A DNA stretch of 64,000 nucleotides from Pelagomonas calceolata (GCA_918797485.1 CAKKNE010000004.1:930001-994000), one strand, 5' to 3'. Positions 8,175 to 60,918 are shown, counted from the stretch's first letter. Numbers and translations are program-made. The notes: a model not told the origin generated them from the letters alone.

Positions 8175-11100
8175 ATGGCCCAGGACATGGCCTTCAGCCC
8201 GGACCCCAGTCAGCATAACTTTACGAGTTCCGAGTACGTCGCCGACGGGGCCGTCGCCGACGACCAGGTCCAACCCTACGACAGCACGCAAGATGCACAA
8301 AAATGGTATGATGACAATGTGAACGAGGACGCCCAGCAGAAGGCGGAAAGGCTCAATAGATTGCGACTCCAGCTCGAGCGAGCCGCGGCCCGGGAAGGCA
8401 CGTCCACCGGAGCCATCCTCGAACGACTGGAGGAATATGCTCCAGTTAGAGCCGTCTGGACGGAATATTTTGATGAGGAAAACACTCCATTTTACGTGAA
8501 CGAAGCTACCGGCGAGACGCGGTGGCAGCTCCCGCGACCGGAGGAGCTCGGTCTCGAGTTAGCTCTCGATGCGCTGCTTTGCGACGACCCAAAGCTCAAG
8601 GAAGAAAAGCTCGCCGAGCTCGCGAAGAAGAAGGCCATCGACGACGAGAGTTCGCTGATGACGGGCGAGGACTACTCGTTGGAAGACCAGGAGACGCCGG
8701 AGGAGCGGGAAGCGCGCGAAGCGCGGGAACTGGAAGAACGAATAGCGTGGGAGGAGTCCGAGCGGTTGCGAATCGAGCAGGAGCGCATCGACGACGAGCA
8801 CTTCCGGCGGGGCCAGGCCGAGGCGAAGCAGGCCTCCGTTTCTCTGTTGGCTCGGAATTTCTATTTTTCCATCAAGGACGAGGTCCGTGACTCAGTGTCT
8901 GTTTCTGACGTTTTCTGAACTTCAAGGTCGCGTCGATGGCGTCAGCGCGACGCTACGCCCACGCGACGCCGTCGACGTGGTCGTCAGAGAGTCTACACGT
9001 CTCGTGAGTGGACGGAGACGGTTTCGCGACGCCGTCGTTCGACGCAGGCCTGCACGAAGCGCGTACAAGACTGGCTCACGGAGAAGCGCGACGCCCACGA
9101 GGCCCAGCAGCGGGAGATGTACCGGACGATCAAGGCGGAGTTGAAGGTGATTGTGCGGCGTCCGATGTATGTTCATCGTTGAGAGCGTCGCGGCGACGGC
9201 ACGACGCTGTCGTCACGCGACCGCGCGCAGGTCTGCCCCGCGCCGAAGCCCATCAACGAGTTCGCCGAAGCTCTAGCCGCTGCCGCTCGGGCCGACGAGG
9301 GCGAGGAGGGCGCCAACAAAGCCGTCGATACATATGAAAAAACGGAAGAGGCCTCGGCCGCCCGGAAGCTCAAGATGACCGAAGCATTGGCCAAGAGAGT
9401 CAAGAAGAGGCGCGAAGATCGCCTCGCGCTGTGGGCGGACGACGGCGACCGCGACGACGACGACGAGGCGTGCGCTTCGAATCGATTAGCTGTCGTGCTT
9501 GAAGAAGTGAAGGGGCGAGGCGCGGACTTTAGGCACCTGCGGGAAGTGAGATTAGTCGACTGTCTGATCACGGATCAAAAACTTGCGGTCTTAGTAGAGT
9601 CGTTGGGCCAAGGCTGCGTTTCCGTATTAGCGCTGGGCGGCAACCAAATCACGAATATCGGCGCGCGGACGCTGGGCGAAGCTTTACAAGCGCTAGCGCC
9701 GCTCCGCGAACTCCATCTCAACGGCAATCACATCGCCGACCCCGGCGTCGAGTTTCTGTGCAAAGGGTTATTCGGCCACTTAACCGCTGCCGAGAAGAAG
9801 GAACAACTGCGTAAAGCTAAGAGACTACAGAGGATGGCCTCCGCAAAAGCCAAAAGGTTGAACGTCAAGGGGAAAAGCAACTCGCTGACGCCTCCCCCCG
9901 TCGCGAAGCCGCAGCCGCCGTCTCGCTTGGCCGTGTTGGATCTTTGTAGCAATCCAGTCAGTCCGGAAGGCGCTCGCGCGTTGGCCGAGTCCCTGACGCT
10001 AGAACGGTGCCGCCTGACGACTTTAAGGCTAGGAGGCGTCCCCAAAACGCTAGACTGCTTCAAGCCCACCGAGGAAGGCAATAGAGCGAGGAAAGTGAAT
10101 CAAATAGTCATCGGCGACGCCGGGGCGATCATGCTCTGCGGGGCGTTGTTATTGAGTCCGGCGGTCTTGGAAGCGAAGGGCCACTCCGGTTTAGAAACGC
10201 TGTGTCTGTCGCGGTGCGGCATCGGTCAGGCCGGAGCGAGGGCATTAGCTGCCATGTTGTACTGCGAGCCTTCCCTCACATCTTTAGATATTTCCGGCAA
10301 TGCGTTGGAGGGCAAAGGCGTCGGTCGAAGCTTCAAGGAGCGGCCCCTCGCGTCGCGAGTGCTAAAGCGCGGACTGGCCGAGCCGCCGTCCGCACCCTTG
10401 CAGGACCTAGATCGATCTAGTGGACTGGCCTGTTTGGGCCGGGCGCTGGAAGCCACGTCATCCCTTAAAAGAGTACTGCACGACGATGTGGACACTGCTT
10501 CATATTTTGATAAATGCCTAGCCCTAGATCCGCCAGCGGACTGGAGTAGACGACGACGACTCGGCGTCGACGCGTGTGCGACGCGGGAATGGTTGTTGTC
10601 CTGCTTCAAGGCCGAGGGCATGGCTCTACCGTCGCCCGGCGCGCGGGAGACGGCGCTGGCGATGGAAAATGACATGACCGAGGAACCGTCGCCAGTGCTG
10701 ACGCAGCGTCCGTTTCCGACCGTTTCCGAACTTCAACCTTGTGAAGATGGCGTCAACGCCATGCTGCGGGTCTACGCGTCTCGCGAGTGAACGGTGTCCG
10801 TGCCACGCAGGTGGAGCTCCCCATCGAGGAGAAGTCCTCTCTCTCCTCAGGCGCCACGACTAGAAGAGCGTCGCAGTTCTTCCGCCACGGGTCGCTGCTG
10901 ACCGATGGCTCGGTGGACACCTGTGTGGAAATCAAATTTTACGGCGCGTTCGTGCTGCATCGTCGCGTCGACCTCCACGCCGTCGCCGCGACGCCTGCTC
11001 GATGGCGTGGCGATGCCGGTTCCTCACCGCTCGACGGAGCCAGCACTGGTTGATTTCCACACAGGTGGACACGGTGCGAACGGCGGCGTCGCCGATGCGA

Positions 11101-14100
11101 TCATCGCAGCTGGGCCGCGTCGACGAGGAACGTTTGGTGTACGAGCCGTCGTCCTTCCACGAGCGCGGCGAGCTCACGGACGAAAATTGGCAGAAAATGA
11201 GAAGGCGCGAGGACCGCGAATTCCGTTTGTCGCAGGGGCTACCCGCGTCGCCCGCCAAGAAGACAAGTGTTAAAAGACGTACTTCGTACGACCAGTACCG
11301 AAGCACCTCATCGAGGACGCCGTCGCAGATCCTGTCTTCCCTCGAACCCGTAAGTCTCCAGAGCTCATTGATCGCTTTTGATTATGGCGACGAGCTCTTC
11401 GTGGAAGGTGAGATCGACGATTCGAACGCTGCTTGTGCCGCGTGGCAGTCGCTCGACGATGCGTGCAGTGATGTGTGGCCCCTGTCCTATCTGGAGTCGC
11501 TCGTGCCGACGCCTGTCGGGGACGACGTTTTGAACGTCTTCCACACGCTTAGGAGCGCTCCGGACGACGTTCCGTTGGGTGTCTTGTTCCCTGGGGCTGA
11601 TGTCTTGGCTGAAAGGAGTGGTGTTCCCTCGCAAGCTCGCTGGGACGCGCTGTGGCGGTGTTCTCGCTGTCTCGAGGTTCTGGGCCGAGAGAGGGAGATC
11701 CGAGCCGACGCGTCCCGTGCTGTGTTAGATGCTTCACAAAAAATTGTGGAGAAGTCGATCGATCAAAGACTGAAGCGTCGATCAGACTTCTGGCAGCACC
11801 AAGAGGCTGTTGACGCTTCATATGAAGCAGCGTGTGCAGCTCTACGGAGACGCGAAGCCGTCGCGGCGCAGTGCGCGAAGGATTTGGACGAGAAGAAGGA
11901 CGCCCTTACACAACTGCTCCAGGACTGTAGAGTAGATAGAAACAATGCGAGAGATCTGGCCAAGAGTCAAGCGAAGTCGGCCAAGAAGGCCGCCCTGGCG
12001 TCGCAGCAGGCCGCGACGGCGCTGCGCAAGGCCATGAAGAAAGCTAAGGCAGACAAAGAGCAGAAACGGGCCGAGGGGAGAGAAACGATCCACGACGAGC
12101 AGGCCCAGGCGCGCGGTGCGATCGCCGCGTTTTGAACTCGTGTCCATCGCACGATGCCGTGGGTGGTTTCTTTGTTGATTTTGAGCTGTTTCGGACCGCG
12201 TCGGGGCCGTCGCGGCGTGTCAGAGAGACAGCGGTCATGGCGTCTTCACGAGACATCATCGTCGTGAACCCACGAGAGTCTACGTGGTCAGCAGGACGCC
12301 GTCGAGACCGATTTGACGGAAATGCTCCGCGCAGGCGAGACGGACGCCCGCGTCCTCGAAGCCTTGAGAGTTTCAGATGAGGCGTCCGAATATGCCGGGA
12401 AGACCGAGGACTTGAGACTGAGAGCCTTGGAGCGCGTCACGGTCGCGGAGACTTGCTTCCAACGAACTTACTTGGAGTTACTACGACTCAAAGCGGACCA
12501 CGCTGCGGCTGCGGCCGACGTCCGGGACTGGCGATTTGTATTGATGGACTTCGACCGCGCGGAGACTTGCAGGGTCATCGAACGATGTATCGATGATGAG
12601 CCGTACGGCGACCAACAAAGGAAAGATGAGGCCTTCCACGCCGCGTGTGAAGAGGATGCAACGAGAAGCGAAGACGCTACCGTACGAGCTTTTGACCTCG
12701 CGGAGCGGTTAAAAACGGCCTCCGAGACCAGAAAAGAGCAGCAGTGCTACGACGAGCACTTAGCGGAAGGTCCGTGCGGCTCGACGGCCATGGACGACGC
12801 CGTCGTCGACGCTCGACGTAAAAGAGATGCCGCGGACGCTTCTCTCGCCGCAGCTGATGCGAAACGAAGGTTACTGGTGCGGCTGAACCCCTTCGCGTCC
12901 AAGCAACTCGCTGCCGAGCTCAACGCGAACGTCATAGCCGCCACACAGTGGCGCAAGGCCTGCTGGCAGCGCTGCGGCGACGCGCTGAAGGACGCTTCCG
13001 GTTTCAAAGCAAGTATGCGGGACGGGAACCTGACGCCGCGACGACGGGCGCAGAACGACGTTTCCGTGAAGGCGAAGCATCCCTCGTCCGAGACATTGGT
13101 GACGGCCTACAACGCCGTGACGGTGAGGGCCGTCAGAGCGATCGAGTTCGAGCAGCGCGAGGAGCAGCGCGTGCGAGATGAGGCTATCAGACTGCGGGAA
13201 GAACAGCGGCGCGATCGGAACGACCAGCTTGCGCAATTGGCGAAGGTCGACCCGCGGCAAGCTGGTCATATGATTGTACAACGTATTCGAGCGATGCGCG
13301 ACGGGGGCCTGCCGGTCGATAAAGATGATTTGGACGATCTACGAGCGTTGCGCCAGTCCAAGGCCCGCGCGATCTCGGCGTCCCGGCGTGTTGGGGTGTC
13401 TTCACTTTGTTGCTGGGACTCGTATCTAGCACACGATGCCGGGGGTGGTTTCTTGTTCGAGTTTGAGGCTCCGCGCAGGCGCGAAGGGTCGACTCCGGGC
13501 CAAGCAGACGCGTCGACTCTTCAAGCGGGCCAAGGCTTTAAGGGACGACGCCTATGAAGCCGAGTCAGCAGCAAAGCACGCCCTGCAAGCTCTGATGGAC
13601 GACAAGGAACGGAAGCGCGTTGATGAGCTGTTGAGGTCCGTGACTCGGCGTGGAAACTGAACTTGAACTTGACGCGGTCGGCGCGACGGCGTCGACGCCG
13701 TCTTCATGATCACATGAGAGTCTACGCGTCTCGCGAGGGAAGTTTCGCGACAAAGTCCGTTCCACACAGGTTGGAGGCGCTCGGACTGTCACCGCCCAAG
13801 CCGAAGGTTCGTCCCAAGAAATCATTGTGGAGGCGTGTGTTTGGTTCTAGGAAGGTGATACTGGATCGACCTTTGAAAGACGAACCGCAGTGTCCGACGC
13901 AACGGCGGCTACGGGACAAGGTCCGGACCAAGGGCCTCGCGCCCCTGCCGGCCATCTCGACGATCATCAAGGACGACTTCAGCACGCACGCGGATCACGT
14001 CGTCCTGAAGCCGAAGAAGAAGCGCTTCGAGCCGGGGAAGCCTCTGGACCTCTCGAAGGCGATCTGCTACGACTCGGACGAGTCGTCGGAGGGGGACTTG

Positions 14101-14136: not shown

Positions 14137-14158
14137 GTGTGTGGTGTGTTTTTACTCG

Positions 14159-29182: not shown

Positions 29183-30071
29183 ATGAAGCTCGTCGTTGCC
29201 CTCGCTTTGCCCGCGGCTGCGCTGCGGCCCGTTAAAGTCACGATGTCCGCAGCCCAGAACCGGCGCGCCTTCGTCATTGGAGGCACCGCGGCGGCGGCGG
29301 CTGCTGCGACGAAGGCCAACGCCTACTCCCTGCCTGATTTACCGTATGCCTACGACGCGCTCGAGCCGTCCATCGACGCCGCGACGATGAAGTTCCACCA
29401 TGGCGCGCGCCCGGCGTATCGAGACGTTGCATCGCGAGAGAGCGCAGCCCCACGCCGACGGCGCGACCCCTCGCAGACAAGCACCACGCGACCTACGTCG
29501 CCGGCATCAACGGCAAGCTCGACGAGAAGGACCAGCCGCCGATTGCCGACCTGATGAAGATCGTCCGCGTGCCCGCGTCCCCCGAACGCCTCACGCCCGT
29601 CACACCGAGCGCGCGCAGGCCAAGGACAAGGGCTACAACAACGCGGGCGGCGGCGTCTACAACCACGACATGTTCTGGCAGGCCATGGCGCCGAAGGGCA
29701 AAGGAGGCGCGCCGAGCGCCGCTTTGGCCGCGGCCATCGACAAGTCCTTTGGATCGATGGACAAGATGAAGGAGGAGTGGGAGGCGCTCGCCGCGCCGGC
29801 CTCGACCTTCGGGAGCGGCTGGGTCTGGCTCTACGTCAAGGGCAAGGACCTCAAAATGGGCAACACGCCGAACCAGGACAACCCGCTCATGAAGGGCGCG
29901 AACGTCGAGGGCATCCCCATTTTGGGCATTGACGTGTGGGAGCACGCGTACTACCTCAAGTACCAGAACCGCCGCCCGGAGTACGTCAAGGCCTTCTGGG
30001 ACGTCGTCAACTGGAACCAGGTGTCGGCCTGGTACGACGACGCGCTCGCCGGCAAGGCGCCCCAGTTCTGA
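29183..30071 (+). CDS. Mn/Fe superoxide dismutase (Mn-type signature), plastid-targeted; introns 29403-29476 and 29563-29618
   Basis: [39 protein letters not shown]; spliced length 759 nt. Confidence 0.95.
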
Positions 30072-30095: not shown

Positions 30096-31935
30096 TCACA
30101 CTTTAGGTTCCTCTAGTAGAGGTTTTCGCTCCTCGTCATCATTCGTGCCGCACGCGTCCCTTCCAAATGAGAGGACGCCGTCGCGGAGGAACGGCAGGCC
30201 GGCCACGATGAGTAGCGGCGACGTGAGCGAGAGCGCCAAAACGACGAGCCAGACGGTACGCGGGTCTGGAGCGGTATCAGTAAACCCTGGACACGCCGGA
30301 CAGGCCGCCGGGCAGCTAGGACTCAGCGCCGCCGCGCAGGTCCCACCGGCGGCCGACACGCACGCGTCACCGGCGGCGACGGCGCAGAATCGCCCGAGCT
30401 CGTCCCGGCAACCTGGACAGTTCGGATTGAACTCGCGGTTCAGCCAGCCCACGAGCACGGTGGACGGCCAGGCGAGGAAGAGGTCCTTCAGAGAGGCAAG
30501 CGCCAAGAACAGCCCTTCCCGGCCCGGCGGCGCGAGACTCACGGCCCAGGCCTGCTGGCGCGGACTCCACAGCACCTCGCCGGCCGTGAGCCAGGCTTCC
30601 CAGACGACAGCACCCGGCGCCGTCGGCGAGACGATCATCGCAATCGGAGACGTGGCCATGATCCACACGCCCGGCACGATGATTCTAAAGGCCTCGGAAT
30701 CAGAGGTGAACGCAGCAACAATAGGTGGCAGCAAGAAGCACCTGTGTGGAAATCAACCAGTGCGTCGGGTGCACCCGATAATTCTTTCGCATCGAGCAGG
30801 CGTCGCGTCGATGGCGAACGCGCCGTAAAATTTGATTCCACACAGAAAGCACCCCCACATACCGACGCTGTGCACGAGGAAGATGCCCCCGCCCTCGCCG
30901 AATTGTCTCTCCAGAAAGGGAGGCAGCAGTTGATCCACCTGCGTGGAAATCAAATTTCGGGCGCCCCACGCCATCGACGCGAGATGCCCACGTAACCGCG
31001 TCTGGTCGCAACCTAACTCACTGGTTGATTTCCACACAGGTCGCGACCTCGGTCCACTGCTTCGCGACGCCGAAGACAGCCAGCGACATCGCGACGACGC
31101 GCCAGATCTCCCGCGTGCGCAGCGTCGCCGCCACGTCGCTCCACTTGGCCGAGGGGCGCCCGCCCGCGTGGCTCGCGACGACGCGGAGAGTGGCCGCCTG
31201 GCGCGCGGCTTCTCGGGTTTGCCACGCGCGCCACGCTGTCAGGGAATAGCTCGTCGGTGGCGGCGCCGACGCCACGGGGCTGCCGTCGTCGGCCTCGACG
31301 ACGCTCTCGTCGCGGAGGTGGAGCGCGACCAAGAGCCACGACGCGCAGACGACGACGAAGGTGAGCACGAGGAACTGGCGCGTGGGCGTATAGACCTCGC
31401 CGAAGAGTAATGCGTCGCCGCGGCGGCGGAACGCGTCGATGCAGACGTCCGCGAGCGCTCCGGAGAGATTAAATGTTGCATATTCGACAGCAAACGCAAA
31501 GGCGCGCGTCTTGGGCGTCGTCAGCTTCTTCAGAGCGACGCGGTAGAGGCCCGTGGCGAGTAAAGCTTCCCCCGCCGGCGAGAAGAGATAGAACGCCGCG
31601 TGGATCGCCGTCCGAGACCGACCGAACGCGAGGAGCCCGCGACCGACGACGGACACGCTCAGCGCCGTCAGCGCGACGCGCCGTACCCCTACGGCGTCCG
31701 TCAGCACCGCGCCGATGAGTCCAAAAGCGACGTGCAGCGAGGCGGAAGTGCCCAGCACGCTCGCGGCCTCGAGGTCGTCGTGGCCGAACTCGTTCGTCAG
31801 GTAGAGCTGCTGGACGAATCGTAAGCCAAAACTACGGAAGGAGTTGAGGAACACGAGTAGCAGCACGAGCCGCACCGAGTTCGGCAATGCCGTGAACGCA
31901 ACCACATTATCGCGGAACTTGGCAGCAGCTGTCAT
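30096..31935 (-). CDS. MFS transporter (POT/PTR-like); introns 30939-31047 and 30742-30852
   Basis: Many TM helices, GAVLTDAVGVRR (motif A). Removing the two introner introns gives 1620 nt in frame. Confidence 0.85.
30742..30845 (-). mobile_element. TIR introner element
   Basis: CTGTGTGGAAATCAA...TTTGATTCCACACAG; flanks GTGCTTT / GTGCTTCT on the minus strand. Confidence 0.9.
30939..31039 (+). mobile_element. TIR introner element, inverted relative to host gene
   Basis: CTGCGTGGAAATCAA...TTGATTTCCACACAG; GT donor exactly 8 nt outside the element, but the two flanks no longer match well. Confidence 0.88.
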
Positions 31936-33728: not shown

Positions 33729-33940
33729 GTGTCTGTTGTCTTATGGCGTTTCCGAAGTTTCGCGCGGGCGGTTCTTGGCGTTGTGCCCGCGCCTCGTGAG
33801 CCGTCCCAGCTAGTCGGGGAGTAGTATGTCTCTGGATTTGTAGTGGCATTTTAAAATCGGGACACGTGGAGCCCCGGACCCGCACGCATCATGATCAGAT
33901 TGCATGGCATCAGTCTGTGCTAAGGCTGCCCTGCGCGACG

Positions 33941-34654
33941 ATGATGCGGTCGGCTGCGCTTCTGTGCGTGGCGAGTCTATTACCAGCCGTGGCTGGCATC
34001 GCGATGGACGATAACACCATCAGGACGGCCGTCACGGAGTGGCTCTCGGACGCGAGCGCCGCCGAGGCGACGTACGGCCACATTTCTACGTGGGAGACTG
34101 GGGGGGTGACGGACATGTCGAAGTTGTTCTACTTGATGGCTTTCAACGACGACGTCGGCGCGTGGGACACCTCAGGCGTAACGAGCATGTCCGGCATGTT
34201 CATGAGCAGCACGTTTAACCAGGACATCGGCGCGTGGGACACCTCGGCCGTCAGAACGATGGACTATATGTTCTACTACGCTTCGTCGTTCAACCGACCG
34301 ATCGGCGACTGGATTGTTGACAGCATTACGGACATGAGATACATGTTCTGGTACGCCTCGGCCTTCGACCAGGACCTCGGCTGGTGCGTGGCCGACGACG
34401 TGGACCTGCGCTACGCGTTCCGCAACACCCCGTGCGAGCCGACGTATTGCGGCGTCACGCGCAAAAACGAATTCGACGAGTGCGAAGCCATCGTCGACGA
34501 CGACGCTTACGACATCTTCGTCGTCGACGACGACAAGGACGACGATGACGACTACGACGATGATGACGACTGCGGATATGGATCCTTGTGCAACGATGCC
34601 GCCACGACCCGCTCCGCCGCCCTCGCCGCCCTCGTCATCGGCGCCGCGCTCTAG
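33941..34654 (+). CDS. DUF285/BspA-like surface repeat protein
   Basis: Signal peptide, repeats of FNxDIGAWDTSxVxxMxxMF, acidic tract and hydrophobic C-terminus (possible GPI signal). Confidence 0.88.
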   Translation: MMRSAALLCVASLLPAVAGIAMDDNTIRTAVTEWLSDASAAEATYGHISTWETGGVTDMSKLFYLMAFNDDVGAWDTSGVTSMSGMFMSSTFNQDIGAWDTSAVRTMDYMFYYASSFNRPIGDWIVDSITDMRYMFWYASAFDQDLGWCVADDVDLRYAFRNTPCEPTYCGVTRKNEFDECEAIVDDDAYDIFVVDDDKDDDDDYDDDDDCGYGSLCNDAATTRSAALAALVIGAAL

Positions 34655-34937: not shown

Positions 34938-37900
34938 TCAAGGGGACGCCTCGCGCAGGATGCGCCGCGAATACGAGGTCTGCTGGTTCTTCTGCGTCAT
35001 CGTCCGCAGGTCGGCGACGTACTTGCCACCAGACAATTGCACCAGCGACCGCTCCTGGACCAAGGCCTGCTCCAGCGTACTCGCCGCTTTTTCATCAAAC
35101 GGGACCCAGTAGGGCGGCCGCACGACGGGGTGCTGGGAAATCCTCTCGGGCGTTTCTTCCCAATACCACGTGACCCGCGTCGGATCGAAGATGAACCGCG
35201 GCTTCTGGACCGCGGGCGGCCGCGGTAAATCCCCAGCGCCGACGACGGCCACGACGGAGCCGACGGGACCGACGGGCGAGTGCTTCGGCGAGCGCCAGCT
35301 CCCGTCCTGGACGCGGCGCTCGTCGTGCACGGGCGTCCGCATCGCCCGCCGCCGGTTGATCGTGTCCTCCCTCGATCGTAGTTTATCGGTGGTCTCCTTC
35401 CACTTGTGGAAGAAGGTCTGCACGTCTAGACTATCGGCGCCGTGCAATTCAAACACCGTCTCGAGCCGCACGATGCCCTCCTGCACGCGCTTCTCGGCCT
35501 TCTTGAAATGCGACAGCTCCGACGACTCGTCCTCGTGGAACTGGCCCAGGAACCAGGCCGTGGCGAAGAGCCCGGCGTAGAATAGTAGTAGTAAAAAGTT
35601 GAGCCAAAACAAGCCACTATGGAAGCCGGCCCGCTCCCAGATGATCTTGGACTGGAACACGGGTGGCGCCGGATTCACGAAACTAATAATGATCTGGACC
35701 ACAAAAAACGAAGGGACCATGATCCTTCTCGCCGCTCTATCCAAGGCGTTCGTCTCGAGCCCGGCGAACATGAGGTTGAAGAGCCAGAAGGTCCAGTCGT
35801 CGGCCTTCGACCTTCTCCTGATTTTACTCTGGGCGGCCTTGACCCTTATAAAAAATTTCTCGTCGCCACCGGCCGCCTGCTGCTGCCGGTAGTCCCTCGA
35901 GCTCTTCACCAACAATATAAACGCCAGGAACTGATACACTAACATGATCACGAAGTACCAGTCCAGCCACGTGAAGACCTTCGTGACCTTGGCTTCGTAC
36001 ATCATAAATTGCGCGGCCAAAATAGTGGTAATAGCAACCGCGCTGCGATCAATGCCCGCCCCTTCGGCCCGGATCCAGAAGACCGTGAAACCCAATAAAT
36101 TGAAGGCCCAGCCCACCAATACATAACTCATAACCGCGAACTGCGAGTTCCGCTCGATCCGGAAGCGGAACTTGACGGTCTTGCCCGAGGGGTGGGAGCC
36201 CACCTTGACCGGTGCGTCGCCGCCGTCGCCGTCCCAGCCCTCGCAGCCCTCGATCCTCCCCACGATGTGCCCATCCCTAATATCTATCTCGGATTCGGAC
36301 TCGGCCACGGTCACGTCCAGGGAACACGTGTGGACGTCGTAGGGATAGTTTCTGAGGTTTGAGTCCGTGTCGCAGCCGTACTCGCCGACCGTCCGGAAGG
36401 AATATTTAACGCTACCGTCCGGTTTCACCTCCGCGGGCAACCTTTTAATAAGTTGCAGGCCCTCCGGCGTCTGGAGGTTGTGGATGTACATCTCTGGGAC
36501 CCATATGCGATCGATGTCGACCCTTATGGGTCCCTCGAAGACGTTACTGTCATATTTCAGTCGTGTGTCGACCCACTCCAGGTCGACCCACGCCGTCGCG
36601 GAGAAGGACCCGCCCGCCGTGTCCATGGTTTGAATTTCCAACTCTCTCACCGAAGCGGTGACGGGCAGGGGCGAGTCGTCGTCGGTCTTCGCCGCCACCG
36701 TAGCCTGGTAGGACGTGTGGTGGATCAGCGCGTCCACGGTGAAGCCCTCGGCGTCGGCGTACTGGCAGGACGTCTCCGTCTCCGTCGTCGTCTCCTCGTA
36801 GAACGCGCAGTCCGCCTCCACGTCCGCGACCGCGGCGTCCCAGGCGTCGACGCCGGTCTCGGCCGCGAGCGCGACCGCGGCGTCCGTGTACGGCTCGAGG
36901 TCGGCGGTGCATTTTTCCCACAGGTTCTCGCCCGTCGTTTCCGCGAAGTAGGCCTTGAGGTCGTCCGTCGTGTCGATCGGGTCGCCGGCGGCGGCCGCCG
37001 CGTCGACCGCGTCCAGGACGTTCTGCACCGCGCGCCACAGGCCCGCCCCCGCGACGCCGACGTACTGGTCGGCGGACGCCACCATGAAGTCGTCGTCTAA
37101 CAAATGCTCCTCGACCCTATCAAAGCCGGCGATCATCAGCTTGGCCGCGCCCTCCCAACTGAGCGTCTCGTCGATGGCCTTTCGCGCGCCCAGGAGCATC
37201 CGGTCGTTGGCCGCCAGGATCGTCGTGATGGACGGGTCGTGGATCAGCGCCTTCTTCGTCAGCTCGTAGGCCAGGTCCTGGTCGAACCTGGCCCGGGCCT
37301 CGGTCGTCTTCGTGATCTTCGCCTCGCAGTTCTTCCAGAGCCACTCGAGCTGCGCGTCGACCCGGATGTCGAACGCCGGCTGGTCGTTGCCGTAGAGCTT
37401 CAGCACGCGGTGCTCGACGCCCCGGCCGAAGCGGCGGCACGTCTCGGCGGCCACGAGCTGCGCCGCGGTCTCCACGTCGGGCGTGAAGGTCCAGTAGAAG
37501 TTCTTCGAGGTGTCGTTGTTCGTGGGAGGGCTCGCGCCGTAGACGAAGAGCACGGTCGCATTTTGGCCCAACAAGTAGTCGTACATGTCGATGCCCACGC
37601 CCGCGCGCGCCGCGCCGACGACGACGACGTCGCTCAAGTCGACACCGTCCTCCTCGATTTTGTCCCGTATGTCGTCCGGGACCATGCAGCCCAGCGGCAG
37701 GGCTCGATCGTGGAAGTCCTCCGCGAGCGCGCCGGAGGCCTTGAGCGCGCCGAGGTCGGCGGCGCAGTTGGCCGTGAGGGTCGGGTCGACCATCTTGAAC
37801 GACCGCTTGTATTCCCCCTTGAAGGTCTCGTTGAACGCGTGGCGCACGGGGCCCCAGTAGTCCTGGAGGTAGTCGTCGCCTGCGCGGGATGTGCGGTCTC

Positions 37901-38106
37901 TCGCGCGTGCTCTCTCGCATCGACGGTGGCGGTGTCTCGGCGCGGCGCCGCCCCGACGCCATCGGCGCGCACGCGTCGCATCGACGCCACTCGCCACGCC
38001 ACTCGAGCGCTTCCGACGCCGCGCCCGCGCCGGGGAAGATGCCGTAGAGGCGCCTTGCTTGGATTATTGGCATGCAGCACGCGAGCGCCCAGAGCGGGGC
38101 GCGCAT
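34938..38106 (-). CDS. Pentameric ligand-gated (Cys-loop) ion channel with N-terminal periplasmic-binding-protein domain and C-terminal WWE domain; GC-AG intron 37880-37994
   Basis: Signal peptide; PBP1-like ILAANDRMLLGA...IAGFD; LBD WVDTRL, IWVPEM, C..NYPYDVHTC; M1-M4; WWE-like WYWEE...WVPFD...YVADLRTMTQKN..T.YSRRILR. Confidence 0.85.
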
Positions 38107-38227
38107 GGTCCCGGGCTGCCCGCGGCCGTGTCGCGTCGTCTGTTTGCTGCCTTGACCGTTCGGCAACGGTGCGTTTGTCCTGTGGCCACAACAGAGCCCC
38201 TCGATCTAAACTTTCTTGCTGGGATGC

Positions 38228-38248
38228 CTAGTGTCTTACGACCGCTAG
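38228..38248 (+). promoter_or_regulatory. CTAG-bounded intergenic motif
   Basis: CTAGTGTCTTACGACCGCTAG about 120 bp upstream of the channel ATG. Confidence 0.7.
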
Positions 38249-38350
38249 CGGATTCTAAACGCGGGAGCCGTCTAAGCGCACACCCGCACGAGATTCAATG
38301 AATCACAGACGCCATCGCCGCGACGCGCGCGTAAACTTTCACGACCATTA

Positions 38351-39124
38351 CTACACGACGACGCTCCCGCGCTTCGACCCCCTTACTTCAAGCTCGAGCG
38401 CCGCCGGCTTGCGCAGGGCCTCGGCCTTCGCCGCGGCGCGCGACCCGAGGGACGCCTCGAGTGCGGCGAATTGCGCCGCGACCGTTGCCGCGTCGAGGCC
38501 GAGGAGCTGCGGCGCGCCGAGGACCAGCGTGCGAAGGTCGCCGTCGGCGAAGTCGTAGTCGCTCCGAAGCATGTCAAACGTCGGCGCCACGTCGAGGTCG
38601 TAGCGCAGGCCTAGCGCTTGCGGCAGGCGCAGGATCACTTTCTTTCTCAGCGTCACGTCGTCGAGGGCTAGATTCTTTTGTAAAGCATCTGCGGCCGCTC
38701 TCACGCGCGCCGCGGAGTAGCTCAGGACCTCGGGCACGCGCCTCGCTATTCGCTTGATCTCCGCATCCCCGAGGCCTAGGCTTCGGAGCCCGTCGCATCG
38801 GTTTTCAAACTCTGAGGTCACCTCGGCGTATCTTGCTTCCAGGTTCTCTTTATCGTCGTCGTCGGCCTCCGGATCCTTGACTGCGTACTGGTAGGTCTGG
38901 CGCGTCGCGCGCGGCGACGCGGCGACCACGCGTGCCTCGATGTCCGATGCCTCATCGACATCAATCTCGAACGTGCGCTCGCAGAAGTCCGCAATGGCGC
39001 CCTTTAGAGCTAATTGACGATTGCTGCCGGCGTTTAGAGCTAATTGACGATTGCTGCCGGCGTTTAGGGCGCTGAAGGCTGCAGCACCAGAGGCAATGCT
39101 TAGCAATAGCCTTGCTGATTGCAT
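38351..39124 (-). CDS. Plastid-targeted mTERF-like protein
   Basis: AAA-FS presequence; repeats IARRVPEVLSYS, VILRLPQALGL, LVLGAPQLLGL. Confidence 0.8.
   Translation of the reverse strand: MQSARLLLSIASGAAAFSALNAGSNRQLALNAGSNRQLALKGAIADFCERTFEIDVDEASDIEARVVAASPRATRQTYQYAVKDPEADDDDKENLEARYAEVTSEFENRCDGLRSLGLGDAEIKRIARRVPEVLSYSAARVRAAADALQKNLALDDVTLRKKVILRLPQALGLRYDLDVAPTFDMLRSDYDFADGDLRTLVLGAPQLLGLDAATVAAQFAALEASLGSRAAAKAEALRKPAALELEVRGSKRGSVVV
39003..39067. repeat. Perfect 30-bp tandem duplication in transit peptide
   Basis: TTTAGAGCTAATTGACGATTGCTGCCGGCG twice (LNAGSNRQLA x2). Confidence 0.9.
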
Positions 39125-39239
39125 CTTTGCGGGCTGGTGGTTGCGGCGGCGATTGATGGCGGCCTTTGGTGTTTGCTCGGTTGCAGCTGTGCTTATTGGC
39201 AGCACGTGTGGGCAAAAAAACGGGCACGCTCTCCCAAGG

Positions 39240-39261
39240 CTAGCGGAGTGTAAGACACTAG
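39240..39261 (-). promoter_or_regulatory. CTAG-bounded intergenic motif
   Basis: CTAGCGGAGTGTAAGACACTAG in a divergent gap. Confidence 0.7.
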
Positions 39262-39334
39262 AAAGCACAGCGCAAAAACGCCAGCAGCGCATCTGCTGCA
39301 CAAAGATTCTGTTTTCGAGTGCCATTTATCGTAA

Positions 39335-39781
39335 ATGATGCAGTCCTCGTTGTGCTTCGCCCTCCTGGTGACCACGGCTGCCGCTCTCCAAGCACCTACG
39401 TCACGGGCTGGCATGCGTCGTGGAGTCGCGCGCGCACCGATGGTGGGCGTGCTCGCGCCGACGAGCAGTGCGCTCTGCGCCGCGGACGACGACGGCTACG
39501 AGGCGCCCAAAATTGAATTCGACCCGGACGCCGACGGCGCACGCGCGGCGTCCGATATAGCGCTTCCCTTCCGGGCACGGGGGACCGACGCAAGGTTGCG
39601 AGAGCGCGCCGTGTCGTTCGGTCGTTCGCCTCGTCGACGACGCGCGCTCAACCCAATATATTTTTTCTCCAACGCAGTCGGCGGCCGCGACCTGTGGAGC
39701 GACTGGAAGAATGGTATCTACATCGGCAGCGTCGCCATCGGAGTGCTGCTGCCGCTGTTCTTCTTCGTCGTCCGGCCATGA
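39335..39781 (+). CDS. Small plastid-targeted single-TM protein; probable in-frame GC-AG intron 39537-39677
   Basis: AAA-LQAP presequence; C-terminal helix GIYIGSVAIGVLLPLFFFVV; pyrimidine tract plus CGCAG at 39677. Confidence 0.65.
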   Translation: MMQSSLCFALLVTTAAALQAPTSRAGMRRGVARAPMVGVLAPTSSALCAADDDGYEAPKIEFDPDADGARAASDIALPFRARGTDARLRERAVSFGRSPRRRRALNPIYFFSNAVGGRDLWSDWKNGIYIGSVAIGVLLPLFFFVVRP

Positions 39782-41215: not shown

Positions 41216-43151
41216 TTAGCTATCATCCACGTCCTTCTGAAAGACTCGCTCAAGGAACGCCGAATTCGTGACGCCGGCCGGCCGCTCATCCGCTATAGAT
41301 GGAGGCAGCTCCGCCCGCACCAAGTCGACGCCGTCGAACGCGTCCAACATCTCCCGCAGCGCGTCGAAGTCAGCATCATCCCCTACGGAAGTACATGTCC
41401 CCCGGGACGCCTGGCCGACGCGGCCCGCCCGGCCCGCCACATGCGCGTACGTCGCAGGACCGCCCTCCGTAACATCACCAACTCGATACACATGACTGAC
41501 GTTCGGGAAGTCGAGACCGCGCGCAGCGGACGGCACCGTCACGAGCACGGTCGCGCCGTCTCGTGCCGCGACCTCTGCAAACGAATCGTCCGTCGCCGAC
41601 GCGCGCGCCATGCTGCCGGCCGCGACCGTCGGGGAGCCGCCCTCCGTCGGGAGGAGGGCGGCGACGGCGTGGGCGCCCCATAGCGACGTTCTCAGCTGCC
41701 TTGCTAACGCGTCGGCCGACGTCTCGTTGGCGGCGAAGACCACGGCCCTCGGTCTCGGGCCTTGACCGGACTCCTCCCACTCCCTCAAATCCCGCCTCAG
41801 ACACCGCGCCAAGATGAGCGGCCTTTTCCACTCGGGAACGTCGAGGAACTCGTGTCTTACGGAAGAGGGCGTTCGTATCTTTTCCTGGGTCAGGGAGAAG
41901 GGCTCAGTGCCACTCTCCGTGGCCTTCGTGGCCGTGCCGTTTCTCAGTAAAGAACTCGCGTCGGTTAACGTGGCGCCCACTAACACACGAGGCACCTTTG
42001 CCAAGCCCAGCGTCTCGAGGATATCTGCGGAGACATCACCACAAGCGTCGGCCTCGTCCACACAAACTAATTTGATATGTGACGTGTCCATGAGGTCCGG
42101 CGCCTCCTTCAACGCGTCTCGCAGCGTAGCAGCGTCGGCGACCAGCACGTCGCAGTCCGCCAAGTCATCAGGTAACGTCGACGAGGGCGTAAAGGTCCCC
42201 CCATAGTCGTCGTACCCGAAATCATCGGTCTTCTCCACGACGATCCGCCTTTCCTTGGCCGCGGCGACGGCTCTGTCCAAATCCGCGTCCGACGCGAGAG
42301 CCGCGACCCGACAGCCCTTCGGGCCCTTGTAGGCGAAGAGTGAGGAAGCGTCGCCGGGGAAGTAGCTGCCTTGGTTCCTATTGGTCCCGCCGACCTGTGT
42401 GGAAATCTTCGCGTCGACCTCCACGCCATCGATCCGACGCCGGCTCGATGGCGTGGCGATGCCGGTTCCTCACCACTGGTTGATTTCCACACAGGTCGAC
42501 TACGATCGTAAAACACGCCGTTCCCAATTGAAGAGCTAAGGCGCGCGACGGACACAACACCAACGCCAAAGGTGCTCCTCGAGGATCCCCAAACCGCGGC
42601 GGCCGGAAGCCTTCCAAATTCTGCGCGCTCGTCCACAGGGCTGGACTGAAGGTCGCCATCGCCGCTTGTGGAGTTAACAAGCCGAGATTGCTGCCCGCGT
42701 CGAGCTGCGTGCGTTCCCGTTCCGCGAGCTTCGTGTCGAGCACCGCGAGGAGAGGTGCGAGAAAGGCCAACGTCTTGCCGCTGCCTGTGGGTGCCGAGAC
42801 GACGACATCTGTCGAGCCGTCGACGGCATCTAACGCAGCTTCTTGCACCGGTGTGGGGAACCTCATCCCTAGGTCTTGCAGTCGCGCTTGCAGCCAGCCG
42901 GGCGCGCCTCGCGACGCCCAATCTCCAGACTTCGTCGTCGCACCGCCGTTGATCGCTTCTAGTTTCTTCTTCAACTCTGCTGCTTTACGGAAGTCCTCCT
43001 GCTGCACGGCGGCGTTCAATTGGGTCATGAGAGCGTTCACGTCGTCGGCGGCGGCGGCTCTGACGGGCGCGAGGCTCTGAACATGGCGTGGTGGCCGCTG
43101 GAAGGCGCGCGTTTGTAGTATTATCGCAACGACGAGGGCTGGTCGATGCAT
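41216..43151 (-). CDS. Plastid-targeted DEAD-box RNA helicase with N-terminal UVR motif; intron about 42395-42503
   Basis: PTPVQ, APTGSGKT, VDEAD, ARGLDF, HVAGRAGR; EDFRKAAELK is UVR-like. Confidence 0.88.
42395..42494 (+). mobile_element. TIR introner element, inverted relative to host gene
   Basis: CTGTGTGGAAATC...GATTTCCACACAG; interior GCTCGATGGCGTGGCGATGCCGGTTCCTCACC identical to the copy at 10921. Confidence 0.9.
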
Positions 43152-51000: not shown

Positions 51001-51740
51001 CTCCTCCTGGTCGACCTCCGCTTGGAGCAAATCGAGTTGCTTCGCCTGCGCGGAGCATCGCGGTGTCCGAACGGCCTCAAACTCGAAAAAGAAACGACCC
51101 ACGGCATCGTGAGACGGACACGAGTCCACCACAACACGACGGGACGCCGCGAGCGCGCCTCCCACTTGTCGAGGTACGCCTGCCTCGCGAACTTTCTCAT
51201 TAATTTAACATCATCTTCCCTTGCGAGCGGGTCGACGGTCCCTCGCGTGGCCAACTCCGCGATCTCCTGCTGACTGAGCCCTTGCTCCGCTTCTAATCGT
51301 TTCGTTCTAAGTTCGTCCCTTTCCCTCATCCTTTGCACTAGTGCGTCGCGCTCCTCCAGGTCCTCGTCCAGGGCGTTGTCCTTCCGCTGGGCCTCGGGGT
51401 CCACGATCTGCTGCGTGCGCTGCGTTCTTCTTCGTTGTTTCTCTCGCAGCTGCTCTATCCTCGACGTGGTGTCGTCTTCGTTCGAAGATGGCAAAGGTTG
51501 CCGTCTCCGTCTAGGTTGTTGGGACGAGGTTTGGGCGCCGGCCGAGCCTCTCGCTCGCTGCCACAATTCGTCGCAGAAGTTGGCATCGTTGATGTCGGCC
51601 TCTCTGAGCAGTGCCGCGAGCTGGTCTCTCGAGGAGGCCCTGGCGGGTAAGGACGCGACGTAGGACGCTACGCTGGACGAGGAGAAGCCGGCGACGGCGT
51701 GGAGGGCGTCGGCGACCCAGGCTTTGAGGTCGTCGGCCAT
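48089..51740 (-). CDS. DHX16: Pre-mRNA splicing DEAH helicase DHX16/Prp2; introns 51046-51158, 50824-50925, 49901-50104, 48893-49056
   Basis: [54 protein letters not shown]; spliced length 3069 nt. Confidence 0.93.
51046..51158 (-). mobile_element. Repetitive intron, family A (GC-AG)
   Basis: GGCGTCCCGTCGTG...CACGATGCCGTGGGTCGTTTCTTTTTCGAGTTTGAGGCC...CTCCGCGCAG, similar to 13367, 12109 and 2199. Confidence 0.78.
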
Positions 51741-52767: not shown

Positions 52768-52895
52768 GGTAGACGGGTAAAAAAAAATACTAGTGATTCG
52801 CGTCGACGGCGTGGTGGGGGGCGTCTTCCGGCGACAGGTGCGACTCGTGATAGGAGTACACCGTCACGGTGAAAAATTAAAAAAACATCACGACG

Positions 52896-53870: not shown

Positions 53871-54034
53871 GTGTTTTTGGGCTGTGCTGGGTGGTGGTGT
53901 TGTGCAGCGGCAGTTATGGCCGACGAGTGGCGCTGTCGTGTTAGATACAGCGAGCAGCGATGCGAAGCGTCACTTCTACGGTCCGGAGACCTACTGCTTC
54001 GATCTCTACGTCCACTTTTTTCACCCTGGGATTG

Positions 54035-54056
54035 CTAGTGTCTTACAGACCGCTAG
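54035..54056 (+). promoter_or_regulatory. CTAG-bounded intergenic motif
   Basis: CTAGTGTCTTACAGACCGCTAG, about 165 and 162 bp from the divergent ATGs at 53870 and 54218. Confidence 0.7.
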
Positions 54057-54217
54057 CCCTCTGAAATTCAGGGTCAGCTTTGTTCCGGGCGCGCGACTCA
54101 AAAGGCGGGCACGCGAGACTCCCTAGGCCAGTAGCCCTCCGCCTAAACGGCGCCCGCCGCGAACGCCGCGAGAAAACGCCCCGAAACCGCCGACCAATAA
54201 TTGCCACAAAAATCTCC

Positions 54218-55237: not shown

Positions 55238-55246
55238 GTAGCTATC

Positions 55247-56062: not shown

Positions 56063-56421
56063 GGCTTTGTGCCTGGCGGTTCCTCCGCCGGTCGTCGCGC
56101 AGTGCCTTCCTCCCTGTGGTCGCTCGGGCAGCGTCCGCGAGCCAGGCGGCAGAGAGGCAACGGATGGCCGCCTAGCTAGAGACACACTAGGAATCACTCG
56201 GCGTTATCGTCCGCGCGCTGGTCTTGGGCCCTCCACGAGGCTCTAGGTTCACCAAAGGACCGGGAGACGCGCCCCTGTCGCACGGCACCCCCAGCGCACC
56301 CGCGACCGCCGGACGGGCAGCCTAAGCAGCGCCAGCTCGATACTTGGTAGGGGCAGCCATACCAGCGCCACCCGCGAGACCTAAGTCAACAGGGAGGGGC
56401 AGCTGACCCCCCGAGGCAAGG

Positions 56422-56871
56422 ATGGCCGACACGGGCAAGATCAAGGAGATGAAGGATAGGGAAGAGCGCTGCGAGCGCGCACGTACCCGCGTCTCGCGAT
56501 CTCGGCACCGAAACTCGGACACGACCTCCGAGCGATACCCTCGACCCAGTATGGAGAGTAACACCTCCCCCAAACCACGACACACCCCGAGTTGAAGCGC
56601 AACTTGACCTTGGATTGCCCCGCAGGCCCAAAAGTACGTCAACGAATTGCAGGAGGTGCACCAGCGCGTCCAGTTCGAGGCCAAGGGCACGCAGAAGAAG
56701 CTGAACGCGCTGCGGAAGCGGGCGGCGGCGGCGGCGGAGGACGAGGCGCGGTGTCTGGACGCCGAATTGGTGATTGCGCGGCGCCAGAAGTTGAAGGACC
56801 TCTACGCGTCGGACTACGACCGGTACCAGGTGGAATTGGAGGCCATGGGGCTGTCGCTGAACTTCGAGTAA
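56422..56871 (+). CDS. Small coiled-coil protein, CFAP141-like (ciliary); probable GC-AG intron 56479-56625
   Basis: C-terminal ELVIARRQKLKDLYASDYDRYQVELEAMGL resembles my recollection of the CFAP141/DUF4558 tail. Confidence 0.6.
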
Positions 56872-57168
56872 GTGCTTCTCTATAAGCATCATGTGGACTC
56901 GGCGGCCGTTTGCGCGGGGCGCCTTGTCGGGTCTTCCCACGAGAGAGTTTTCATGGCGGGCCGGGTCCTGGAGGCCTGGGGGCCCGGGGGGAAAACTCTC
57001 GGCCGCAGCCGCGCGCGCCCTGCGAGAGTCTTGGCACAGAGAGAGGCAGGCCAATTAGGGGCAGCGTCCGGCCTCACCCCGGGGCGCAGCGATCGCAGCG
57101 GTCGTCGCATCAGTTCGTCGCATCGATAGCGTGCACATGCAAGCGACGCGAGGGGCAGCCCGACAGTG

Positions 57169-58272: not shown

Positions 58273-58304
58273 TGTGAACATAGATTGTGAACACAAGTTA
58301 TAAG

Positions 58305-59564
58305 CTAGCGCCGCCGCGTCAACAGCGCCGCCGCCAGCAACCCTATCGACACGACGGCCGCCGCGCGCGAGATCGCCGCGGCCAGCCGGTCCAGCGCCGG
58401 CGCGACGCCGTCGGAAGGCGGGACCGCTGGCGCCGCCGGGGGCTCCTCCGTCGGCGCGTGCACCACACCACCGCCCAGTAGAGTAGCCAACGCCACGTAG
58501 TGCGCGCCCCGCAAGCCCAGATCGTCGACGAGCACCAGGCGCAACGGCACGCGGTCCAACACGGGACGCAACCGCCCCCGATCTTTGTAAGCTTCCAGGA
58601 ACACCCTTTCTTTGAGCCTCTCCCGATTCTTCACGGCGATGCCCCCACAAACATAAAGCCCGCCGAACGGCAGCCACTTCACCGCAGCGTTGCCAAGTTC
58701 CGCGCCGTAGGCATCGAGGACCAGATTCAAAGCCTCGCCACAGAGATGGTCGTCGTACGCGGCCCTTGCTATAACTCCAGCACCCTCCGGGTGTGCTTTT
58801 ATTCTCTTCTGCAGATCTTTATCGACTTTTCCCGGAAACTTCTCGGCAAAAAAATCGTACACGTTGACGATGCCCTTTCCGGAAATGACCCGTTCCGCCG
58901 AGACGCGCCCACCGAATCTGCGTTGTAGTGCGGTCAACAGTTCCGTCTGGATGGCATCCCTGGGAGCGAACGCGACGTGACCGCCTTCCGAGGGCCACGC
59001 CTCATACACGCCTGACGAAGCCGTCGCGTAAGCTTCACCTAAACCAGTACCCGCCCCGACGCAAGCGATCGGCGCACCAGGTGACGGTTGCGACGGCCCA
59101 TTCAACGTCGAATAGTCGCCGTCGCGCAGCGTCACGACGCCGAATCCATTAGCAACAAAATCATTGACTAAACGCATCGTGCCCGGTTGCATGCGGAATT
59201 CGGCCTCGAGGAGTCTAGCTTCTATCCTCCACCCGAGATTCGTGAACGTGACCCTATCTCCCTCTTCTACCGGTCCGGCTACCGCCAGACATCCCGCGGC
59301 GAGTTCTACTAAACCAACGTTGGCCTCCGCGAGAAACGCGTGTAAGAGCTCGGTAAAGTCTCCGGGCAGGTTGTTCGTTTTATATGTTTGCGCATACAGG
59401 GGCGGCTCCGTGCCTATCGCCTCGAGGTCTTTCTTGGAGGCGGTGTGCTGGAGGCGGAAGAGCTCCAAGCGGCTGTTGGTGCCGCCGAGATCGCCGCACA
59501 GCACGCAGCGGACGTTGGCGAGCATGGAGGCGGACCTTGTCATGCGGGGGCGCTCGGGCGCCAT
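58305..59564 (-). CDS. glk: Bacterial-type glucokinase with C-terminal membrane anchor
   Basis: GDLGGTNSR, LAVAGPV, LVNDF, GAGTGLGEA, SEGGH, AERVISGKG, GGLYVCGGI. Confidence 0.93.
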   Translation of the reverse strand: MAPERPRMTRSASMLANVRCVLCGDLGGTNSRLELFRLQHTASKKDLEAIGTEPPLYAQTYKTNNLPGDFTELLHAFLAEANVGLVELAAGCLAVAGPVEEGDRVTFTNLGWRIEARLLEAEFRMQPGTMRLVNDFVANGFGVVTLRDGDYSTLNGPSQPSPGAPIACVGAGTGLGEAYATASSGVYEAWPSEGGHVAFAPRDAIQTELLTALQRRFGGRVSAERVISGKGIVNVYDFFAEKFPGKVDKDLQKRIKAHPEGAGVIARAAYDDHLCGEALNLVLDAYGAELGNAAVKWLPFGGLYVCGGIAVKNRERLKERVFLEAYKDRGRLRPVLDRVPLRLVLVDDLGLRGAHYVALATLLGGGVVHAPTEEPPAAPAVPPSDGVAPALDRLAAAISRAAAVVSIGLLAAALLTRRR

Positions 59565-59778
59565 GGTGTTTTGGTGTGATTCGCCGCGGCGGTGATTCGC
59601 GCCCGCTTTTTTGGTGGACTTTGGCTGTCGGTGGTTGCGTGAGCCTTTTATGGCTGCGCGATGCCGTAGCTATGCAGGAAACGCCGCGTCGGCGACGTCA
59701 ACCGCTTCTCGACGAGCGCTGGTGCAACCGACGCGGCCCTACAGCGAATTCCCGCTTGCCCTGAAAAAAGCGGCGGAG

Positions 59779-59800
59779 CTAGCGGCATGTAAGACACTAG
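59779..59800 (-). promoter_or_regulatory. CTAG-bounded intergenic motif
   Basis: CTAGCGGCATGTAAGACACTAG about 215 bp upstream of the glucokinase ATG. Confidence 0.7.
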
Positions 59801-59884
59801 GAGAGGGGTACGGGGGACCCCGCGACGTAACTAGCCTGAGCCTGAGGCATCGACAGGGGGAACGATCGCAAAGGGCGAGACCGA

Positions 59885-60918
59885 TTACGCACACGTCGCC
59901 AGCAGTCGCGGCACGACGGTCGGATGCTTCCGCCCGAGCGCCGCCGCGCACGCTTCCGCGCGACGCCGCCATGCCGCTGCGCAGGAGCGGTCCGATGAAC
60001 CACGAGCGCAGGCGCGGGCGACGCCGTCGAAGCCACCGTCCGCCGGGCGGCCATCAGACGCCGCGTAGGCTCGCAAGCGCGCCAACCATGGCTTCACGCG
60101 CGTCAGACAATCAGTAGTCGCATTGTCGGAGCCGCGAAAGAAGCCCACCTTCGCCACACCCAGGAACTGCGCGAAGGCGACGGCATGCGCGCGCGGGTGC
60201 CGCGCCGCCAAGTCGTAGGAGAGGAAGAAGGTCCGCCGGCAGTCGAGGCCTTTGATGGCCTTCTCGAGGCGCGCGACCGCTTTGGCGTAAAACGCTTCTT
60301 CGCGGTGCAGCGTGTCGACGCGGCCCCCGTCCATATCCCTAAACTTCCAGAAGCGCCTCAATATACTCTCCTGCGTCGCCACGGCGTCCCTCACCAGGAC
60401 GACGTGCCAGCGGCCTTTGTCCACGACGGGATACTTCGGCGCGTCATTACTAAAGCAGCGCCAGGCGCTCCCGCGGCGCGCGCGGCTCCGCGCCTTTACA
60501 TACACAACTTTGGCGCCGACGCGCGACTCGGAGCAACACCCGCCACAACTGGAAAAGGAAAACTGGCCGCCGCACCGCTTCAGCTTGCCGCCGCCGCCGC
60601 AGAGGCGCCGCGGCAGGCCCTCGAGCCAGTGGTGACCTGTGTGGAAATCAATGCAGTTACGTACGGGAAGACGCGTCGCGTCGATGGCGGGGCGTCCGAA
60701 ATTTGATTTCCACACAGGTGGTGGCCCACGCCCTCGGTGCCCAGGGTCTTGAAGTTCGAGCCCTTGGGCTTCGGGCGCCAGCCGTGTTGGCGTTGGGCGG
60801 CGAGGCAGCGGCCCGCGGTGCTTGCGGGCGGCCAGAGGCGTGATGCTACGTCGAAATATTCAGTCGCGTTCTCGGGCCGCGCGGCCGCCGCGGTTATGAC
60901 GGCGAGGAGGCGGCGCAT
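59885..60918 (-). CDS. Secreted sulfotransferase-like protein; GC-AG intron 60637-60725
   Basis: Signal peptide; LGTEGVGHH (PSB-loop-like), VVLVRDAV..S..RR, LSYD; spliced length 945 nt. Confidence 0.65.
60637..60717 (-). mobile_element. TIR introner element with 8-bp TSD (7/8 match)
   Basis: CTGTGTGGAAATCAA...TTGATTTCCACACAG; flanks GTGGTGAC (60629-60636) and GTGGTGGC (60718-60725). Confidence 0.92.

Follow-up and report, generated by a model that had tools for sequence, protein, structure and literature searches.

We find that a 64,000-nucleotide (nt) stretch of the Pelagomonas calceolata genome (GCA_918797485.1, CAKKNE010000004.1:930001-994000; the whole stretch is called the window here) carries six similar introns in five unrelated genes, and that these are very probably copies of one family of intron-making transposons (introners). 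The copies would be internally deleted forms of 203-bp elements with terminal inverted repeats (TIRs) and 8-bp target site duplications (TSDs), spliced from the mRNA so that the protein is unchanged. They share their TIR, stand in both orientations relative to their hosts, and take the acceptor from the CAG that ends the TIR and the donor from the TSD copy upstream. RNA reads cross the splice junction of two copies, and relatives of the element in metagenomes fix the length of the TSD and the rule for the donor.

Six copies in five host genes

Five copies and one relic carry a TIR of 13-15 nt, and all six lie inside coding frames. Positions are counted from the first letter of the window, and copies are named by the first position of the element.

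2413..2466, plus strand: 54-nt intron, a GT donor 8 nt upstream plus the 46-nt relic 2421-2466, in a leucine aminopeptidase gene (1109-3044)
10913..11064, plus strand: 152-nt intron, the upstream TSD copy 10913-10920 (GT donor) plus the S1 element 10921-11064, forward, in an LRR-protein gene
30742..30852, minus strand: predicted 111-nt intron, a 7-nt TSD remnant with a GT donor plus a forward S1 element (30742-30845); it is intron 2 of an MFS transporter gene (30096-31935)
30939..31047, minus strand: predicted 109-nt intron (from a frame test), a donor at -8 plus an inverted S2 element (30939-31039); it is intron 1 of the same MFS gene
42395..42503, minus strand: 109-nt intron, a GT donor 9 nt upstream plus the S1 element 42395-42494, inverted, in a DEAD/Helicase_C gene
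60637..60725, minus strand: 89-nt intron, a GC donor at -8 plus the S2 element 60637-60717, forward, in a host gene at 59885-60918

The window has a GC content of 63%. Matches to the 13-nt TIR with at most two mismatches number 10 in these 64 kb, against 1.15 ± 1.03 by chance, and none of 100 shuffles reached 10. A TIR weight matrix built from 202 family ends, with eight simulated windows as control, recovered the six left/right pairs and one cross-pair of neighbours (30742 with 31039); it gave no further pair in the window and none in the simulated windows. The relic scored just 14.6 and 8.5 at its two ends, which makes it the weaker family member within the window; its site in three relatives reads N-Q, in line with intact TIR letters. 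The right TIR of 30742 has lost 1 nt. The other copies align as internal deletions of S1 (10921, 30742 and 42395) or S2 (30939 and 60637). A sequence-only reading of this DNA had proposed six elements with a common TIR at these positions, all interrupting coding frames. The TIR matches and matrix pairs bear this out, and every one of the six does interrupt a frame. It had also called 30939 and 42395 inverted relative to their hosts, in agreement with their alignment to the master elements and with the minus strand of both host genes; 10921, 30742 and 60637 are forward.

That reading described the TSDs as ranging from perfect to eroded, with the donor starting the upstream 8-bp copy. An in-register TSD is readable in two of the six copies: 10921, at 8/8 (its second TSD copy, 11065-11072, is perfect), and 60637, at 7/8. 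The other four match at 3/8 (30742 and 30939), 0/8 (42395) and 1/8 (2421). The donor lies at -8 in four copies, as proposed, at a predicted -7 in 30742 and, by RNA reads, at -9 in 42395. A 1-nt deletion in the intronic TSD copy would explain the -7 donor.

Removal of the introns gives the expected proteins. If retained, the relic intron introduces an in-frame stop; the spliced model matches a P. calceolata protein (CAH0373322.1, UniRef100_A0A7S3ZU80) at 574/574 residues. Of 12 aligned homologues, 11 are colinear with it, and the twelfth reads into the preceding intron. In the MFS gene, the -8 donor at 30939 and the -7 donor at 30742 give a single 539-residue frame, and at 30742 the -7 donor is the only one that opens a long frame on both sides. 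This frame is colinear, with no added residue, with five full-length relatives (P0192, P0193, P0197, P0266 and P0268). The DEAD profile match is broken into 1-64 and 90-161 across the 42395 intron. The host of 60637, which carries a sulfotransferase-domain label from UniRef and clusters with a P. calceolata protein, is identical in its GC-donor model to the MMETSP transcript protein P0043 (314/314), and P0200 has the same junction. Other donors at 60637 (GT at -12, GC at -14) were rejected, as they do not reproduce the transcript protein. A donor at -6 would keep the frame at 42395, but reads place the donor at -9.

Unspliced gene calls of relatives differ at the two MFS sites. P0001, P0195 and P0196 read into the 30939 element; P0002 and P0003 read through the 30939 site and then into the 30742 element; and the five full-length relatives read through both sites. 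This pattern of presence and absence fits polymorphism, but spliced or part-spliced transcripts would produce the same picture.

Two sites show further detail. Within 30939-31047, the two TSD copies, intronic and exonic, disagree at 5/8 positions. At this site P0001, P0195 and P0196 read V-P-T where the window reads V-A-T, and the exonic V-D-Q is conserved; the comparison suggests that the intronic copy may have changed fast or been replaced. At the 30742 site, the read-through in P0002 implies that the upstream TSD copy is down to only about 2 nt before the TIR.

Splicing in RNA reads

We placed polyA RNA reads on two stretches, one holding 42395 and the MFS copies and the other holding 10921. 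Runs X21, X22, X23 and X1 come from one sample, and X5 and X6 from two others. At the inverted copy 42395, an RNA joint from 42392 to 42502 skips 109 nt (11 reads in X21, 18 reads in X22, and a contig of X5). At the forward copy 10921, a GT..AG joint skips 152 nt (5 reads in X21, 3 reads in X23, and contigs of X1 and X6). RNA junctions thus agree with the predicted introns in both of the two copies that have a listed joint. The sequence-only reading, which had named RNA-seq junctions as a check, proposed seamless, frame-restoring removal in both orientations with the CAG acceptor supplied by either end of the element. The joints at 10921 and 42395 and the identical host proteins support this on each point.

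Joints of 30742 and 30939 are absent among 15 of 126 joints listed, at a depth below 10 in the MFS gene; one piece of X5 contig 9 starts at 31046, consistent with the 30939 junction. Splicing of the other four copies is probable from their identical or colinear proteins.

A fixed branch point in the TTGAT of the TIR was considered and rejected: 42395 has lost TTGAT at its acceptor end and is still spliced.

Loose read ends accumulate at 11073 (885 and 817 reads), 30740 (about 3000 per run) and 30775, and point to an unspliced copy located elsewhere. This abundant copy could lie in an untranslated region or be an intron that is spliced inefficiently; alternatively, the reads could be a minor part of the output of a very highly expressed gene.

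The same reads contain four more joints that fit ordinary introns (29402-29475, 29563-29618, 37877-38027 and 39536-39676), two of them in an Fe/Mn superoxide dismutase gene. A joint from 37627 to 38493 is private to run X12 and was disregarded; runs X12-X20, whose word shares are small, did not count as evidence on habitat. In the gene for a DUF285 repeat protein (33800-34651), reads from paralogues cross-map and give spurious joints near 34245-34355.

The family in metagenomes

A metagenome scan with a 21-nt element end found at least 121 stretches. Reading 120 loci gave at least 101 paired copies at distinct flanks and at least 47 unpaired ends, which may derive from several Pelagomonas populations. 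The TIR is 15 nt long in this set, and each of its positions is conserved in 89-101 of 101 copies. The TSD is 8 bp: it is perfect at this length in 47 of 101 copies, and at lengths of 4-7 and 9-11 in 0-2 copies each. Mean identity of the 8-bp TSDs is 0.83, compared with 0.36 for shuffled ones.

The perfect TSDs reveal the donor rule. All 47 start with GT/GC or end with AC/GC, compared with 31.5% of background 8-mers. The donor is at the start only in 16, at the end only in 23, on both sides in 8 and on neither side in none (Fisher's exact test, P = 6.5e-7). This either-or pattern argues for a donor requirement on one strand and not for a palindromic target preference. Across the whole set, a -8 donor is present on one strand or the other in 100 of 101 copies. 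Host strands were called with a codon model, which gave confident coding calls for 79 of 101 copies (37 forward and 42 reverse), all with donors at -8 (67 GT and 12 GC).

The donor rule might instead arise because the transposase itself prefers certain targets, or because insertion is directed to gene bodies, without selection after insertion. We consider this unlikely. A preference is suggested by the excess of GT over GC among perfect TSD ends (44:11, against a background of 0.053:0.121) and by the lack of any donor-less copy, though intergenic DNA makes up about 11% of the genome (Guerin 2022, Supplementary Note 4, PMC9481584). However, a symmetric transposase should produce independent or palindromic half-sites, whereas the two sides are negatively associated, and TSDs with a donor on both sides are no more frequent (17%) than in the background (17%). 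A specific palindromic preference for GTnnnnAC, hinted at by 9 of 10 window ends, was likewise rejected on the 8 of 47 perfect TSDs with both sides.

Exactly 203 nt was the length of 15 of the 101 copies, 12 of them with a perfect TSD; among copies shorter than 120 nt, 11 of 34 have a perfect TSD. Element length correlates with TSD identity (Spearman 0.37, P = 1.4e-4), shorter copies having the more eroded TSDs. This supports the age gradient that the sequence-only reading had suggested from TSD erosion. Drift of the intronic TSD copy to AC, which would lengthen the TIR stem, found no support (5 of 39 intronic against 2 of 39 exonic copies).

Among 23 near-full-length copies, 15, 3 and 4 fall into three subfamilies whose interiors are just 45-50% alike. 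These subfamilies (loci L054-L173, e.g., L057, L061 and L065) have unrelated interiors with a common TIR and a common length of 203 bp.

Four loci are irregular. Two of them, L060:2606 and L132:1404, have a TIR-like end, identically flanked, about 100 nt before the family end, possibly a nested or adjacent related element. At L098:4142 and L100:2450, the TSD is offset by two bases and the first TIR base is altered, a small rearrangement of the end.

A four-residue discrepancy at one copy

At 60637 the public protein and the transcript evidence disagree, which is one small new point. The discrepancy turns on a second GT.

60712..60713, minus strand: TIR-internal GT, 4 nt into the element; its use as donor keeps 12 extra nt in frame

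The public protein CAH0373356.1 (P0198, 318 residues) equals the model with this internal GT exactly (8 + 4 = 12 nt, four added residues). Two transcript-derived proteins lack the four residues and use the seamless GC donor.

One possible reading of this discrepancy, which we hold tentatively, is that the four-residue addition published for another introner would, at least in the TIR family here, be a gene-model error at copies with GC donors: a predictor would pick the internal GT, four bases into the TIR, where the cell would splice seamlessly at the GC of the TSD. If this is true, public proteins could contain false insertions at the copies with GC donors, which amount to up to about 15% of the total. 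Separately, the convergence of three subfamilies on 203 bp would point to a length rule, set by the transposase or by nucleosome spacing.

Alternatively, the family may have two working donors, the seamless TSD donor and the TIR-internal GT (+12 nt) as a backup at weak sites. The match of CAH0373356.1 speaks for this, as do the conservation of the internal GT (unbroken at the A end of 88 of 101 copies and at the B end of all 101) and the same 8 + 4 arithmetic given for an introner of Aureococcus sp. (Gozashti 2022, Fig. 2F-G legend, PMC9860276). Nevertheless, we think it quite improbable. The GC donor is the one used in both transcript-derived proteins, and no +12 joint appears among 15 of 23 joints listed at 10921, where depth is 5 and 3 reads. 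Furthermore, none of the 47 perfect TSDs lacks a donor of its own, so rescue of donor-less sites is not visible; from these young copies, we argue that the internal GT cannot replace the TSD donor. A minor real +12 isoform may exist at 60637.

Proposed mechanism

The reading that we prefer, transposition followed by splicing, would run as follows. A transposase likely mobilises the elements in trans by cut and paste. Both ends read CAG outward, so that an acceptor is available in either orientation, and the GT or GC that opens the upstream TSD copy, or its remnant, serves as donor; the intron thus consists of the element and a single copy of the TSD, and a young one measures 211 nt. Where the 8-mer offers the host strand no donor, selection likely removes the insertion. 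Later, internal deletions likely shorten the intron, and its TSD copy likely drifts or gains small indels, leading to the present copies of 46-144 nt with donors at -7 to -9. The TIR, the TSD length, the donor rule, the use of both orientations and two junctions are direct observations; we infer the transposition itself, the selection behind the donor rule and the order of erosion from the patterns described above.

Several observations weigh against this account. Four of the six window copies have no recognisable in-register TSD, and 22 of the 101 metagenome copies were dropped from the coding calls (low score, stop, or small margin). Because the hosts are among the window genes used to train the codon model, its recovery of the six window introns is partly circular. 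Each run has few junction reads (3-18), and cross-mapping from other copies obscures retention; one copy elsewhere in the genome is abundant and unspliced in polyA RNA (885 and 817 reads). Finally, no transposase family was matched in the 68 of 135 window open reading frames (ORFs; at least 150 residues) that were scanned with Pfam. Nor was an autonomous copy seen among the at least 47 unpaired TIR ends, 10 of which were read by eye, with ORFs outside the Pfam scan. These 10 are short decayed copies or have unrelated flanks; in the whole set, 15 of 47 have a degenerate partner or a distant weak match, and the remainder run off a contig or have decayed. For the ORFs scanned, this agrees with the sequence-only reading, which saw no transposase in the window.

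Homogenisation of old introns by gene conversion, or reverse splicing of an excised intron, would do without DNA transposition and would suit both the missing transposase and the 30939 copy, whose intronic 8-mer is off at 5/8 positions, yet whose element end agrees with family copies at all of 30 nt. This reading is hardly credible: reverse splicing is strand-fixed and leaves no TSD, and it would not produce 8-bp duplications that differ from locus to locus, inverted termini, or an even split of orientations.

The sequence-only reading had pointed to hAT elements on the basis of the 8-bp TSD. The length of the TSD is confirmed, and membership in hAT is unproven. A TSD of 8 bp is common to hAT, P and Merlin elements and is not diagnostic. 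The hAT TIR starts with the consensus (C/T)A(A/G)NG. In this family, the second TIR base is T in 94 of 101 copies at one end and in 100 of 101 at the other, which does not fit that consensus. Because the terminus misfits and no transposase was seen, we do not file the family as hAT. PF05699 is absent among the 14,639 P. calceolata annotation rows listed in the part of Guerin 2022 (PMC9481584) available to us.

Carriage by viruses was also considered. Viral contigs contain 53 single 15-mer matches, none with a close TIR pair, which we take as chance, and three loose TIR pairs 1.4-2.5 kb apart.

Other repeats in the window

Another group of sequences resemble one another (70-85% alike in pieces) and are more decayed than the main family; they lie on the plus strand at 2199-2355, about 8885-9030, 10695-10810, about 12115-12290, from about 13367, and at about 13660-13769, with one minus-strand member at about 51050-51170. 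The members of this group are apparently introns: 10695-10810 is spliced in reads, and removal of 2199-2355 is needed for the aminopeptidase frame. Two members (ending at 10810 and 13769) end like the TIR of the main family. Separately, a short intergenic motif occurs at least four times (39238-39278, 54018-54058, about 59775-59800 and about 61128-61150) and is possibly a promoter element.

Implications

With RNA reads and population-scale counts, our results confirm a way of gaining introns that was already published, in a picoalga abundant in the ocean. They add detail in quantifying the 8-bp TSD and the one-strand donor rule, and in the shrinkage of the intron from 203 to 46 nt. The case of 60637, where public model and transcript differ by four residues, bears on one published introner mechanism. 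If its transposase were identified, the element would become usable as a seamless insertion tool.

Comparison with known systems

The mechanism is published, and this TIR family is very likely already catalogued. By its descriptors, it is very likely P. calceolata fam2 with its sister families. Dataset S2 of Gozashti 2025 (PMC12130899) gives fam2 as 340 introners of the TIR DNA type, 202 bp long with a TIR of 13, donors GT in 281 and GC in 42, and the mechanism "co-opt 5' carry 3'"; fam3 and fam39 of the same species have 203 bp and TIRs of 13-14. The family here agrees with fam2 in species, length (203 bp), TIR length (13-15), donor ratio (GT 67, GC 12) and mechanism. The fam2 row that we compared differs from our data in giving no TSD length, and identity is judged by descriptors, not by sequence. 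The TIR letters were not found in 13 of the 14 supplementary files of Gozashti 2025 or in the other supplements searched; figures, GitHub files and bioRxiv supplements may carry them. The hAT label of fam2 comes from a blastn match to RepBase hATv-2N1_EHux (PMC12130899).

In the passages of Guerin 2022 (PMC9481584) that we consulted, 956 putative introner elements of P. calceolata are reported, with GT and GC donors, an AG acceptor and a conserved TIR. The intron length peak of the species, near 210 bp, agrees with 203 + 8 here. In contrast to our analysis, these passages contain no analysis of TSDs, orientation or subfamilies.

The sequence-only reading had likened the family to the introners of Aureococcus anophagefferens, and the features tested here agree: multiple copies, a TIR, a fixed TSD, a co-opted donor and both orientations. 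In that species, the element brings one splice site with it and takes the second from the TSD (Huff, Zilberman and Roy 2016, as described in bioRxiv 10.1101/2020.10.14.339549, PMC10228655; also cited in PMC5647799). The likeness to this different genus is by description. Aureococcus fam1 and fam2 have 96-97% GT donors, compared with about 85% here.

Introner family 4 of an Aureococcus sp. metagenome-assembled genome (MAG) adds 12 bp, an 8-bp TSD plus 4 bp of element, and hence four amino acids, according to the legend of Fig. 2F-G in Gozashti 2022 (PMC9860276), a study whose RNA-seq analysis did not cover MAGs. By description, this is the arithmetic of the TIR-internal donor, whereas the transcript-derived proteins here are seamless.

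A further parallel lies in the dinoflagellate Polarella glacialis. The preprint bioRxiv 10.1101/2020.10.14.339549 likens introner classes with an 8-nt TSD and either orientation to those of A. anophagefferens. Again compared by description, its introner-like element (ILE) classes 6, 8 and 10 share with the P. calceolata family an 8-nt TSD, a donor taken from the TSD and use of both orientations, and differ in also allowing GA donors.

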